From a virus (Duplodnaviria > Heunggongvirae > Uroviricota > Caudoviricetes): DNA of 61,816 bases. The notes beneath the pieces are model-generated. The model worked only from the letters and a program-made list of their open reading frames with translations, was not told the DNA's origin and did not search any database. Positions 25,574 through 38,015 of this stretch are shown piece by piece. The position numbers and the translations under genes are program-made. Location of the stretch: the IMG/VR virus record IMGVR_UViG_2740892042_000003. The stretch is one strand, 5' to 3'. Numbering within the stretch: the first letter of the stretch is position 1; each line of letters starts with the position of its first letter.

Positions 25574-26451
25574 AAACGCCCACCATTCCCACCCTTCTGG
25601 GGCCGGACGGCATGACATCGCTGCGTGAATATGCCGGTTATCACGGCGGTGGCAGCGGATTTGGTGGGCAGTTGCGGGCGTGGAACCCACCGAGTGAAAG
25701 TGTGGATGCAGCCCTGCTGCCCAACTTTACCCGTGGCAATGCCCGCGCAGACGATCTGGTACGCAATAACGGCTATGCCGCCAACGCCATCCAGTTGCAT
25801 CAGGATCATATCGTCGGGTCTTTTTTCCGGCTCAGTCATCGCCCAAGCTGGCGCTATCTGGGCATCGGGGAGGAAGAAGCCCGTGCCTTTTCCCGCGAGG
25901 TTGAAGCGGCATGGAAAGAGTTTGCCGAGGATGACTGCTGCTGCATTGACGTTGAGCGAAAACGCACGTTTACCATGATGATTCGGGAAGGTGTGGCCAT
26001 GCACGCCTTTAACGGTGAACTGTTCGTTCAGGCCACCTGGGATACCAGTTCGTCGCGGCTGTTCCGGACACAGTTCCGGATGGTCAGCCCGAAGCGCATC
26101 AGCAACCCGAACAATACCGGCGACAGCCGGAACTGCCGTGCCGGTGTGCAGATTAATGACAGCGGTGCGGCGCTGGGATATTACGTCAGCGAGGACGGCT
26201 ATCCTGGCTGGATGCCGCAGAAATGGACATGGATACCCCGTGAGTTACCCGGCGGGCGCGCCTCGTTCATTCACGTTTTTGAACCCGTGGAGGACGGGCA
26301 GACCCGCGGTGCAAATGTGTTTTACAGCGTGATGGAGCAGATGAAGATGCTCGACACGCTGCAGAACACGCAGCTGCAGAGCGCCATTGTGAAGGCGATT
26401 TATGTCTATCATCTCACCGTAGTTGCCCGCATCGTTCGCCAACTCCACTGA
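25570..26451 (+). pseudogene. B: portal protein B, N-terminal 276 codons, interrupted by insertion
   Basis: matches lambda gpB up to ...LQSAIVKA (through 26397), then island-derived codons IYVYHLTVVARIVRQLH and stop. Confidence 0.85.
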
Positions 26452-26528
26452 AACCCTTGCTGCGTCTGGAATGTCGTTTTCCATGCTTTTGATGACCGTT
26501 CATCACCCTTCCAGTTTTTCGCGGTTTT

Positions 26529-26581
26529 GTGTATTGCAATGTGTATTGCAAATTGGCGATCGGGATGGGTGTGTATTGCAA
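26529..26581 (+). repeat. integrase arm-type repeats (left end of island)
   Basis: gtgtattgcaa at 26529, 26541, 26571, directly upstream of island int. Confidence 0.55.
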
Positions 26582-26599
26582 ATCTCTTGAGGGCTTTTA

Positions 26600-27841
26600 A
26601 TGGCTATTGAAAACAAACTCAGTGACAAACTGTTAAAGAGTCTTGTCGGAAAACGGCAGGACAAACAAAAAACAATAGCGGATGGGCGCGGGTTGTCTGT
26701 GCGTGTAAGCATGGTTGGGGGGATCAGCTTTGTTTTTTACTATCGTCTTGGTGGCAGGGAATCCCCTCCGGTATGGCTTACACTTGGTCGCTATCCTGAC
26801 ATGTCTCTTGCAACGGCCAGGCGCATGCGTGATCAGTGCCGTGAATGGCTGGCTGAAAATCTGGACCCCCGCAGGCAAATAAAACTTGCTGCCGAAAAAA
26901 CTATGCAACCAGTGACCGTAAGGGATGCGCTGTTTTACTGGTACGACAATCACGCCACAACAGCCAGAAAAGAGCATGAATATTTAATAAAACGATTTGA
27001 AAAGCATATCTTCCCCTATATCGGTGATATGGCTATAGAACAGTGCAAATTACACACATGGCTTACCGTCTTTGACAGGATCAAAAAAAATGCGCCTGTT
27101 ATGTCTGGTGCAATTTTTCTTGATATCAAACAGGCGTTGCGTTTTTGTCGCGTCAGGCAATACATCGCGTGCGATCCCTTTGGAGATATTAACGTAAGTT
27201 ATGTCGGGCGCTCATCCGGTATAAGGGATCGCGTTCTTAATATCAATGAAACCGCTGATGTATGGTCTTATGCTTACGGTAATAATTTGCTAACTCTGTC
27301 ATCAATATATAACCGAAGAATAATGGTTATCTGCCTGGTGTTTGGTTGCCGACAGCAGGAGGCGAGGCTATCCACCTGGGACGAATGGGATTTAAAAAAC
27401 TGGGTATGGACAGTCCCAAAAGAGCACAGCAAAAACAAGGAGGCTATAGTAAGGCCTGTTCCTGACGGAATAAAACAATGGATCGTTAATCTTTACGCAG
27501 AAACAAAAAATCGCGGTTATGTTGTCGGTTGTGCTTTGCAAAGGGCGACAATAACAGGGGCTGCAAACAGAATATGCAGGCGTCTTGGTCATGATACTAA
27601 TGGCTTGTGGTGCATACATGATTTCAGGCGCACATTTTCCACTACGCTTAATGATATGGGGGCGGATCCTTATATTGTCGAACTTCTTTTAGGTCATAAA
27701 GTGAAAGGGGTTGCTGGTGTTTACAATAAAAGCAGGCATATAAAGAAAAAACTTGAGGTGCTTAATATGTGGGTTAATTACCTTAATACGATAGCAGGAT
27801 TTAACAACAACGTTATCGAGCTTAATAAAGAGGTGGTGTGA
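26600..27841 (+). CDS. tyrosine integrase (P4/PICI-type)
   Basis: 413 aa; C-terminal HDFRRTFSTTL...LLGHK...GVAGVY catalytic region. Confidence 0.9.
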   Translation: MAIENKLSDKLLKSLVGKRQDKQKTIADGRGLSVRVSMVGGISFVFYYRLGGRESPPVWLTLGRYPDMSLATARRMRDQCREWLAENLDPRRQIKLAAEKTMQPVTVRDALFYWYDNHATTARKEHEYLIKRFEKHIFPYIGDMAIEQCKLHTWLTVFDRIKKNAPVMSGAIFLDIKQALRFCRVRQYIACDPFGDINVSYVGRSSGIRDRVLNINETADVWSYAYGNNLLTLSSIYNRRIMVICLVFGCRQQEARLSTWDEWDLKNWVWTVPKEHSKNKEAIVRPVPDGIKQWIVNLYAETKNRGYVVGCALQRATITGAANRICRRLGHDTNGLWCIHDFRRTFSTTLNDMGADPYIVELLLGHKVKGVAGVYNKSRHIKKKLEVLNMWVNYLNTIAGFNNNVIELNKEVV

Positions 27842-27842
27842 T

Positions 27843-28100
27843 ATGGCAATTTATTCTCTTGTTGATGAAAACGATTTGCGCACAATGAAGGACATTGATC
27901 GGTTCATTCGTGAAAAAGAGTGCATAGCACTTACCACGCTGGCAAACTCAACACGCTGGAAAATGGAGCAGGCAGGTAAATTCCCGCGACGTATCAAGAT
28001 CGGTGAACGTGCTGCAGGGTATCGACTTTCAGAGGTTCAGGCATGGATCCGTGGTGAGTGGCATCCTGGATGGAAACCTGGAAAAACAAAACAGCAATAA
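27843..28100 (+). CDS. AlpA-family regulator/excisionase
   Basis: 85 aa; directly after int; AlpA-like HTH region. Confidence 0.7.
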   Translation: MAIYSLVDENDLRTMKDIDRFIREKECIALTTLANSTRWKMEQAGKFPRRIKIGERAAGYRLSEVQAWIRGEWHPGWKPGKTKQQ

Positions 28101-28156
28101 CCAGTAAATAATGCCCCTCATCACGAGGGGTTTTTTGTCTATAAGGTAAAAACGCG

Positions 28157-36133: not shown

Positions 36134-36144
36134 CGTAGTACGCT

Positions 36145-36426
36145 ATGACTGAATCCGAAATACTGCGATTAATCCGCCGTGCTTGTGGAATCAGCAAGCA
36201 GCATGACGAACAGGCCACGCAGCCGGACAGCGTGACCGCAGATAATTATGTGCGTGTAGTGGCTGAGGTGATGCGCCGTGACGGTATTGAGCTTAACGGC
36301 GTGGATATGCGCAACATACGAACAAGAGTCCTTGAGTTGCTGGCATATCGTCGCCGTTCTCAACAACGGAGGGAGAGCGCGAAAAATACTTACCAGTGGA
36401 AGAAGCCGGAACGATTGCGGCGGTAA
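36145..36426 (+). CDS. hypothetical Arg-rich protein
   Basis: 93-aa ORF directly after island terS. Confidence 0.35.
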   Translation: MTESEILRLIRRACGISKQHDEQATQPDSVTADNYVRVVAEVMRRDGIELNGVDMRNIRTRVLELLAYRRRSQQRRESAKNTYQWKKPERLRR

Positions 36427-36680
36427 CTTGCTGATATTCCCGATAACGCAAAATTGCGCTGGCTGACTTGTTGCATTGCAAAAAGTTAAGCAGGAAGGCA
36501 CGGCCTGTAAGATGGGATGCAGTAAGTAGTTCAAGGCTACCTTGTGCTGGCACGCACAGTTAAGCCGTCGGTGCTGGATATCCCCCACTGGGGGAAAAGC
36601 TGGCTACATCCCTCACATCTGAGGACTGATAACGCGACATTGCGCTGGCTGGCAAAGTGCAAAATTGCACGATGGCCTAA

Positions 36681-36817
36681 CCCATTGATTATTTCGAAAA
36701 CCTGCAATGCAGGAAATCGGGGAAGTAAGCCTAAGCTATTGATTGTTTCGAAAACCCCCATTGGGGGATGTCGGGAAAGTAAGACTAACCCATTGATTCT
36801 TCCACAATCCTCAATTT
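36681..36817 (+). repeat. three direct repeats near island right end (candidate TerS/cosB-like binding sites)
   Basis: cccattgattatttcgaaaacc, gctattgattgtttcgaaaacc, cccattgattcttccacaatcc, each near a G5/C5 hairpin. Confidence 0.45.
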
Positions 36818-37140
36818 GAGGAGGCCGGAACGTCTACATAGCTGCATCGCCGTAATGATGATTCAGCCCACCAGTCAAATCAGCACAGCAACGACAGAAT
36901 AGCCCGACACAGAAAAACCACGAATATGGGGTTTTTGTTATGACATGGTCATGATGACCACTCATACAAAACAGGTAAAGCCCACCAGCCTGATTAAAGG
37001 TTAACCGGAAAAAAGCCAGGTATCCAATCTCGATATGGGGATCCCTATATCGACATTAACGCCCACTAAAACTGTGCATATATGCATAGAAAAAGCATCC
37101 ACCAGCTTTATGACGGATGCCGCTCATCTTATAAATAATC

Positions 37141-37162
37141 GTGTATTGCAGTGTGTATTGCG
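37141..37162 (+). repeat. integrase arm-type repeats (right end of island)
   Basis: gtgtattgca gtgtgtattgcg, same motif as left-arm repeats. Confidence 0.55.
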
Positions 37163-37235
37163 ACTCCTTTAAACGATAGGTCTGAGCATTCGTAATGTAC
37201 TGTTTTTAAATTTTATTTTTTCCTGTCTTTTCATA

Positions 37236-38015
37236 AAGGCGATGTATGCCGCCACCATTGAGAGTGAGCTGGATACGCAGTCAGCGATGGATTTTATTCT
37301 GGGCGCGAACAGTAAGGAGCAGCGGGACAAGCTGACCGGCTGGATTGGTGAAATTGCCGCGTATTACGCCGCAGCACCGGTCCGTCTGGGAGGCGCAAAA
37401 GTGCCGCACCTGATGCCGGGGGACTCACTGAACCTGCAGACGGCTCAGGACACGGATAACGGCTACTCCGTGTTTGAGCAGTCACTGCTGCGGTATATCG
37501 CTGCCGGACTGGGTGTCTCGTATGAGCAGCTTTCCCGGAATTACGCCCAGATGAGCTACTCCACGGCACGGGCCAGCGCGAACGAGTCGTGGGCGCACTT
37601 TATGGGGCGGCGAAAATTCGTCGCATCCCGTCAGGCGAGCCAGATGTTTCTGTGCTGGCTGGAAGAGGCCATCGCCCGCCGCGTGGTGACGTTACCTTCA
37701 AAAGCGCGCTTCAGTTTTCAGGAAGCCCGCAGTGCCTGGGGGAACTGCGACTGGATAGGCTCCGGTCGTATGGCCATCGATGGTCTGAAAGAAGTTCAGG
37801 AAGCGGTGATGCTGATAGAAGCCGGGCTGAGTACCTACGAGAAAGAGTGTGCAAAACGCGGCGATGACTATCAGGAAATTTTTGCCCAGCAGGTCCGTGA
37901 AACGATGGAGCGTCGTGCAGCCGGTCTTAAACCACCCGCCTGGGCGGCTGCGGCATTTGAATCCGGGCTGCGACAATCAACAGAGGAGGAGAAGAGTGAC
38001 AGCAGAGCTGCGTAA
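37236..38015 (+). pseudogene. B: portal protein B, C-terminal 257 codons
   Basis: MYAATIESELDTQSAMDF... matches lambda gpB residues 277-533; 276 + 257 = 533. Confidence 0.85.

Follow-up and report, generated by a model that had tools for sequence, protein, structure and literature searches.

A 61,816-nt viral sequence from IMG/VR (record IMGVR_UViG_2740892042_000003, Caudoviricetes), called here in its entirety the window, carries a lambdoid (lambda-like) prophage into which a 10.8-kb island is inserted. A Pfam profile search placed the island inside a portal gene of the lambda B family. Phage_portal_2 matches are found on both sides of it, an interruption that the finding text of a preliminary description of this DNA omits. 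The gene set of the prophage, hereafter the helper, comprises Nu1, A, W, C, D, E, FI and FII, together with open reading frames (ORFs) of lambda-like tail-gene size. The island core genes lie on the + strand, co-oriented with helper Nu1, A, W, B, C, D and E. The features that define the insertion site are listed below.

25570-26451, + strand: portal N-terminal fragment (Phage_portal_2 positions 2-242 of 354, E 2e-64)
26392-26399, + strand: attL identity block AAGGCGAT, the crossover region, with an identical 8-mer at attR
26528-26550, + strand: doubled tgTGTATTGCaatgTGTATTGCa arm motif, P' side of attP (exact 20-mer 26530-26549)
37236-37243, + strand: attR identity block AAGGCGAT, with an identical 8-mer at attL
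37242-38015, + strand: portal C-terminal fragment (Phage_portal_2 positions 238-354)

The two 8-bp cores delimit an island of 10,844 bp integrated at about portal codon 278. The limits given in the preliminary description (26398-37241) were accurate to within 6 nt, and the cores themselves, at 26392-26399 and 37236-37243, now replace them as boundaries. In-silico removal of the island, joining 25570-26400 to 37245-38015, yields an unbroken portal protein of 533 aa, and the rebuilt 300-nt attB is 99.7% identical to the intact portal genes of deposited lambdoid phages. The homologous N-terminal coding sequence has been annotated by PGAP as a partial portal pseudogene in three genomes. A natural empty site was found in a prophage of E. 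coli 582 (NZ_CP120568.1, 2835467-2853527), whose 1602-nt portal gene is intact. Left of the att core, 12.7 kb of this prophage align with the window helper at 99.86% identity; the alignment ends at the core and picks up again exactly at the attR core, with a right side that is only 96% identical. The contrast between the two sides marks the helper prophage as mosaic at or near the insertion point.

We also observed that, in the integrated state, the portal N-terminal fragment is extended by 17 island-encoded codons (26400-26451) before a stop, and that the C-terminal fragment opens with a natural in-frame Met codon immediately after the core (37242-37244). Truncated portal fragments could therefore in principle be produced before excision.

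These data make it very probable that the island is a helper-embedded phage-inducible chromosomal island (HE-PICI) of group B:Phage_portal_2:241, equipped with its own integrase and co-oriented within the portal gene of a lambda-like prophage. HE-PICIs were defined by Tommasini, Mageeney and Williams (2023, NAR Genomics Bioinformatics; PMC10111431), who assigned 491 such satellites to 14 insertion sites within cognates of lambda late genes, every satellite running in the direction of the late operon. Supplementary File 1 of that study includes elements of ~11 kb with names of the form ...11.B_Phage_portal_2_241 and the identity block 'aaggcgat'. The 8-bp identity block of the window is the same, the Pfam split falls at profile position 238-242, and window positions 37185-37303 are identical to the 119-nt attR printed for Eco10269.11.B_Phage_portal_2_241. 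The same authors reported that a doubled motif, tgTGTATTGCantgTGTATTGCa, is exclusive to HE-PICI attP, with copies ~81 bp upstream and ~132 bp downstream of the centre (PMC10111431). The doubled TGTATTGC motif occurs in the window as exactly two 20-mers, one in each arm (26530-26549 and 37142-37161), for 0 expected by chance, and a third, single TGTATTGC is located at 26572. The downstream copy starts ~132 bp past the core centre, in agreement with the published spacing; for the upstream copy, the 81-bp spacing holds only when measured from motif end to core end, as the offsets depend on the reference point. The four zones of the island also follow the order found in HE-PICIs, namely integration, Bro, replication and late. 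The element family, together with its set of capsid, decoration and small-terminase genes, is thus already published and does not constitute a new kind of satellite.

The distribution of the island is compatible with a mobile element. It is present at a coverage of at least 80% in 53 out of 5426 complete E. coli genomes. A 24.9-kb composite query made of the island and its portal-gene flanks reached the same coverage in 51 complete E. coli genomes, with 97% for the best match; the portal-site location itself was seen in the three genome records inspected. The exact 31-nt attL junction was also recovered in 18 IMG/VR contigs. None of the deposited phage genomes contains the island, only a ~70-nt cosQ-cosN segment being matched in them. 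Between the window island and the copy found in strain A0 34/86, identity reaches 99.98% (one single-nucleotide polymorphism and one indel in 10.8 kb), whereas the prophage flanks of these two copies are only 96.6% and 95.3% identical, the step in identity occurring at the att cores. Such a step is what would remain if the island had recently moved horizontally from one helper prophage to a different one.

The genes and other features of the island are as follows.

26600-27841, + strand: tyrosine integrase (Arm-DNA-bind_3 3e-17, Phage_int_M, Phage_integrase 2e-14)
27843-28100, + strand: AlpA regulator or excisionase-type protein (Phage_AlpA 5e-14)
28113-28131: strong hairpin terminator 3' of the first alpA (terminator scan)
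28157-28735, + strand: Bro-N domain protein, the 'Bro zone' (Bro-N 5e-20)
29069-29374, - strand: divergent YlcI/YnfO-family protein, 101 aa (NCBIfam NF041551 2e-17; phrog_6522)
29393-29487, divergent intergenic region: candidate operators, inverted repeats I3 and I24, with 13 nt and 100% complementarity in I24 (repeat scan)
29436-29464: promoter-like site (promoter scan)
29565-29762, + strand: Icd-like protein (NCBIfam phage_ICD_like 1e-17)
within 29565-30670, + strand: three small conserved hypothetical ORFs of 61, 63 and 73 aa (PHROG matches without assigned function)
30371-30670, + strand: DUF4222 protein (DUF4222 9e-24)
30667-32418, + strand: P4-type primase/helicase (D5_N 2e-15, DUF5906, Pox_D5)
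32427-32660: replication-origin iterons GTTATCTACCT/GTCTACCT, direct (families D4 and D17) and inverted (I1, I6, I10)
32708-33384, + strand: conserved 85-aa protein followed by the single-stranded DNA-binding protein SSB (84% and 69% identity to their EcCICFT073 counterparts)
32962-33384, + strand: SSB with a C-terminal ...DNIPF tail (SSB 6e-16)
33602-34643, + strand: gpE-family major capsid gene of satellite lineage, frameshifted in the window (protein WP_000228106; Phage_cap_E 1e-40)
34653-34994, + strand: gpD-family head decoration protein (WP_000190771; HDPD 4e-15)
35006-35389, + strand: second AlpA-family protein, 127 aa (Phage_AlpA 1e-8; PDB 8c3t 8e-11; phrog_2790)
35414-35590, + strand: island cos, with lambda-like cosQ and cosN and a cosB unrelated to that of the helper (alignment with the helper cos)
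35591-36133, + strand: full-length Nu1-type small terminase subunit (TerS), 180 aa (Phage_Nu1 4e-24; phrog_57 5e-51, positions 8-195 of 199)
36145-36426, + strand: conserved 93-aa PICI protein (phrog_1561; 76% identity to the EcCICFT073 counterpart and 81% to that of the SS52 PICI)
36427-37235: non-coding right arm, including three 54-nt tandem repeats (36675-36836, family D1) and the second doubled motif (37140-37162)

Profile matches place nearly every gene named in the preliminary description where it had been put; the divergent 'RHH repressor', in turn, proved to be a YlcI/YnfO-family protein (29069-29374), a candidate repressor. The operator proposed beside that gene has its counterpart in the operator-like inverted repeats at 29393-29487. 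Searches of the island ORFs against Pfam and PHROGs detected no portal, protease/scaffold, large terminase subunit (TerL), tail or lysis family, which bears out the reported lack of portal, protease/scaffold, TerL and tail genes. The int-alpA-Bro-primase/ori core, the island's own cos and TerS and its precise att sites likewise substantiate the view of a satellite-like element. The sequence-level traits used by Fillol-Salom and colleagues in 2018 to define Gram-negative PICIs (GN-PICIs) are all found here: an int-alpA pair, a primase or rep gene followed by ori, unidirectional organization, a size of ~10-20 kb, an incomplete set of virion genes with no lysis family, and the presence of a capsid homologue, terS and cos. 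The iterons lie where an ori downstream of pri is expected in the PICI arrangement (PMC6092414). The idea that this gene content fits no known class does not hold. A capsid gene is present in 21 of the 29 reference GN-PICIs (PMC10111431), the island is syntenic with EcCICFT073, the same late layout exists in an O157:H7 PICI, and the element belongs to the catalogued B:Phage_portal_2:241 group.

Comparison with P4, PICI and capsid-forming PICI (cf-PICI) references, which the preliminary description had suggested, also bears on whether the island could belong to the prophage proper, as a moron or mosaic segment, or be a cf-PICI or a P4-like satellite. The lambda-type cosN and the Nu1-, E- and D-family genes are common to island and prophage, and a P4-family primase domain and an Icd-like gene are present. 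Yet the island is absent from deposited phage genomes and near-identical prophages exist without it; portal, protease, head-tail connectors, HNH and TerL, which a cf-PICI would carry, are all missing; and the cos is of lambda type, with no profile match among the island ORFs to capsid-size or helper-transactivation functions (no search by name was made for Sid, Psu or Delta). The comparison thus sides with a PICI rather than with a cf-PICI or a P4-like element, and we give this group of alternatives almost no credence.

Several other scans of the island were negative. An Rfam scan returned zero matches at E<=1, including in the right arm and its 54-nt repeats, so no C4/isrK-type immunity RNA, a kind reported for some HE-PICIs, was found. 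A PADLOC scan of ten island proteins gave no defence-system match. PDB sequence searches with TerS and the 93-aa protein gave nothing meaningful, while the second AlpA matched an AlpA structure only. Each of the three 54-nt repeats at 36675-36836 has its own 6+6 palindrome (CCTGCAaTGCAGG, CCCCCAtTGGGGG and CCTCAAtTTGAGG), such that the dyad is kept while its sequence changes; the RNA fold of the repeats is not significant (z = -1.5). The primase matches the P4-family primase C-terminal domain at 3e-30 with 104.9 bits, slightly below the curated cut-off of 108.7 bits. Its C-terminal part (31057-32418) shows only 89.5% identity between island copies that are otherwise 99% identical, and the flanks of this segment (30772-31056 and 32419-32780) fail to align with the same two other copies. 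The segment is 85% identical to EcCICFT073. This pattern looks like a modular replacement of the replication-specificity region.

The packaging region of the island joins a lambda-like cosQ and cosN to a cosB that differs from that of the helper. Its cosN has the canonical sequence GGGCGGCGACCT (35446-35457). A second cos, such as the one found in EcCICFT073, was searched for in the island and not found. The adjacent TerS is 36% identical to helper Nu1 in an alignment that extends from residue 3 to the last residue, with far greater divergence in the N-terminal DNA-binding region than in the C-terminal half. In lambda Nu1, the C-terminal half contains the oligomerisation and gpA-binding parts. 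The closest phage relative of the island TerS is gp1 of N15 (47.6%). We considered whether the gene beside cos could encode an Rpp protein. Rpp proteins are 139-154 aa long, lack the TerL-binding tail and must heterodimerise with the helper TerS (PMC9026076). This possibility was rejected, as the product is a full-length Nu1 homologue of 180 aa with no blastp match to RppA (E<=1e-3); a PDB sequence search of the island TerS against Rpp structures also gave no match at E<=1. Among 5426 complete E. coli genomes, 759 contain the cos-TerS segment at a coverage of at least 80%. In the PICI of O157:H7 strain SS52, the sequence of cosB is conserved along with TerS. That some GN-PICIs carry a terS homologue was already stated in 2018 (PMC6092414), and a complete Nu1-type TerS in the late module of a PICI is accordingly not new.

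The helper cosN (22736-22747) is a variant, GGGCGGAAGGCG, and not the canonical GGGCGGCGACCT seen in the island and in the helpers of three other genomes. The 61 nt around this variant are 100% identical in at least four complete E. coli genomes, which indicates that the variant is natural.

The capsid gene of the window copy contains a +1 frameshift, due to a run of nine A residues (33660-33668) where ten other copies (three complete genomes and seven IMG/VR loci) have eight. Because of the extra A, the true capsid start (ATG at 33602, MVDLYSPTQLVQVANAEDVQKK...) is out of frame with the gene body. The A-run is the sole indel between the window island and the A0 34/86 copy. The encoded capsid protein is 56% identical to c1499 of EcCICFT073, 43% to the helper gpE and no more than 44% to the capsids of deposited phages, and the decoration protein is 54% identical to c1500 of EcCICFT073 and 41% to the helper D protein. 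Both are therefore nearer to their EcCICFT073 and SS52 PICI counterparts (54-56%) than to those of the helper. A recent capture of helper head genes was rejected, as the identity to the resident helper is only 36-43% for the capsid, the decoration protein and TerS. In the comparison with EcCICFT073, the proportions of nonsynonymous and synonymous differences (pN and pS) are 0.30 and 0.72 for the capsid gene and 0.30 and 0.70 for the decoration gene, with a saturated synonymous rate (dS). The low pN relative to pS indicates long-term purifying selection on a satellite-specific capsid/decoration lineage. The two genes form an old pair that is selectively maintained in the satellite lineage.

These observations could be taken to mean that the island is a partial capsid-forming satellite, intermediate between classical PICIs and cf-PICIs, whose gpE and gpD homologues build a satellite shell, possibly a smaller one, on the portal, protease and scaffold of the helper. 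Full-length capsid and decoration genes in the ten other copies, their satellite-specific lineage, the constraint acting on them and the presence of the island's own TerS and cos all agree with such a model. It conflicts with published work on EcCICFT073, in which deletion of the syntenic c1499 or c1500 left interference unrelieved and the island was packaged in phage-sized heads (PMC6092414), a study that Tommasini et al. cite for the point that transfer does not need the capsid gene (PMC10111431). The island moreover lacks a scaffold, protease or portal partner, and its capsid gene is frameshifted in the window. We consider the model quite unlikely. A more elaborate version, in which the satellite gpE and gpD act with a self-sufficient TerS to make own-shell and perhaps smaller heads while embedding in the portal gene times the supply of a shared head component, appears slightly less probable still. 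Alternatively, the capsid homologue could resemble Ccm and co-assemble with, or poison, the helper capsid, thereby redirecting head size or interfering with the helper. Ccm of SaPIbov5 provides an established precedent, being a capsid homologue of a satellite by which the size of the helper capsid is redirected (PMC8569155), and the lineage and constraint arguments just given apply equally here. Deletion of the capsid or decoration gene of EcCICFT073, however, did not restore lambda plaquing, and small capsids were not seen (PMC6092414). Such a role is unlikely.

We thus favor a B:Phage_portal_2:241 HE-PICI that depends on its helper, although four points weigh against this interpretation. First, membership in the HE-PICIs is deduced here from att identity and the arm motif and not from integrase phylogeny. 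Second, virions of the HE-PICI prototype 11capE were undetected (PMC10111431), and transfer of any HE-PICI is consequently undemonstrated. Third, the capsid gene of this copy is frameshifted, through either a homopolymer sequencing error or the formation of a genuine, fresh pseudogene. Fourth, it is uncertain whether the terminase of this variant-cosN helper would cut the canonical cosN of the island. The frameshift, the non-canonical helper cosN and the undetected prototype virions are also what would be expected of an immobile remnant, an insertion in decay whose only effect is to inactivate a cryptic prophage. Decay is difficult to reconcile with the fact that every other island ORF is intact, as are the att cores and arm motifs, with the 99.98% identity of the island between strains whose prophage flanks differ by 3-5%, and with the occurrence of the same site in differing helper backgrounds across 51 genomes. 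An immobile remnant is most improbable.

For an embedded and helper-dependent PICI, the following course of events can be proposed from the published HE-PICI and EcCICFT073 work. Upon SOS induction, the composite of helper and island would excise and replicate. Helper late transcription, if resistant to terminators as in lambda, would cross the co-oriented island, including the predicted hairpin at 28113-28131. Int and AlpA would then excise the island and thereby rebuild the portal gene, the sequence consequence of this event being that seen upon in-silico removal. The excised island would replicate by means of its own primase and iterons/ori. Domain conservation and the joint conservation of cosB and TerS suggest that the divergent N-terminal domain of the island TerS binds the island-specific cosB, and that the Nu1-like C-terminal half of this protein recruits the helper TerL (gpA), which would nick the lambda-type cosN. 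Island concatemers would enter heads made with the helper portal, protease/scaffold and tails; at 43.4 kb, some four copies of the island would fit the packaging range of lambda, comparable to the ~45-kb concatemers of EcCICFT073. Dependence on helper B, C/Nu3, A and tails is a reasonable assumption because the island has the satellite core, cos, TerS and att sites but no portal, protease, TerL or tail genes. The 61.8-kb window exceeds the 48.5-kb genome of lambda; if the composite is unpackageable, excision would be required for the spread of either partner.

The locus offers a clean natural case of a satellite that would physically gate the portal gene of its helper, such that neither partner could obtain heads until excision, and the near-identical E. 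coli 582 prophage provides an empty-site control. The underlying biology had been set out before, by Tommasini et al. (2023) and in the work on EcCICFT073. The family makes two questions testable: why GN-PICIs retain a constrained capsid and decoration pair that was found dispensable in published experiments, and whether a satellite with a complete TerS can bypass the TerS of the helper, on which Rpp-type PICIs depend.

Comparison with characterized satellites places the island more precisely. It resembles SaPIs, the pathogenicity islands of Staphylococcus aureus, in function only: the TerS of pac SaPIs redirects the helper TerL, and SaPIbov5 encodes a capsid homologue, Ccm. SaPIs are Gram-positive and unrelated in sequence, pac SaPIs package by headful and not at cos, and a Ccm-like role of the island capsid is unproven. 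With P4-like satellites, the island shares only the primase C-terminal domain and the Icd-like gene, and its cos is of lambda type, not P2 type. The cf-PICIs (EcCIEDL933; Alqurainy et al., bioRxiv 10.1101/2022.09.08.507074) likewise combine a PICI int-alpA-rep core with head and packaging genes of their own, but they encode capsid, protease, portal, head-tail connectors, HNH, TerS and TerL and take only tails from the helper, whereas capsid, decoration protein and TerS are all that was found of such functions in the island. The PICI inserted at the phoQ site of O157:H7 SS52 (NZ_CP010304.1, 1534662-1545098) has the same late zone of capsid, decoration, cos, TerS and 93-aa protein, with 80% amino acid identity for TerS, the same cosB sequence and 81% identity for the 93-aa protein. 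It differs by its chromosomal site, by an integrase that is only 40% identical and by a RepA-type helicase that replaces the P4-type primase, an example of how modules are shuffled among the PICIs of E. coli.

EcCICFT073, the model Gram-negative cos PICI (Fillol-Salom 2018, PMC6092414; Fillol-Salom 2019, PMC6739421), is syntenic with the island gene for gene from the YlcI-like gene through the last ORF. Amino acid identities are 55% for the YlcI-like protein, 46% for the Icd-like protein, 73% for DUF4222, 81% for the primase, 84% for the 85-aa protein, 69% for SSB, 56% for the capsid, 54% for the decoration protein and 76% for the terminal 93-aa protein. In both elements, a lambda-like cosQ and cosN are associated with a foreign cosB beside a packaging-specificity gene, c1499 and c1500 being the capsid and decoration genes of EcCICFT073 (PMC6092414). 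EcCICFT073 is chromosomal (phoQ-side att) and has two cos and RppA, a 144-aa protein without the TerL-binding tail that needs the helper TerS as its heterodimer partner. In contrast, the island is helper-embedded, with one cos, a complete TerS without detectable similarity to Rpp, a different integration module and a second AlpA where EcCICFT073 has a 137-aa hypothetical protein.

The experimentally studied HE-PICI prototype, 11capE/61icd of E. coli NRG857c (PMC10111431), is also embedded in a lambda-type late gene and has its own gpE-family capsid, an int-alpA-primase core and a cos in common with the helper; its insertion site is the capsid gene E (E:Phage_cap_E:80) and terS is stated to be absent from it, whereas the island targets portal gene B and carries a full Nu1-type TerS. 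Finally, the published members of group B:Phage_portal_2:241 (for example Eco14781.11 and Eco10269.11) are like the island in their portal target codon, aaggcgat block, attR, size of ~10.84 kb, doubled TGTATTGC motif with its downstream spacing, late-gene co-orientation and four-zone layout. The window copy has an extra A in the capsid gene and a helper with a variant cosN, and nothing substantive distinguishes it from these members.

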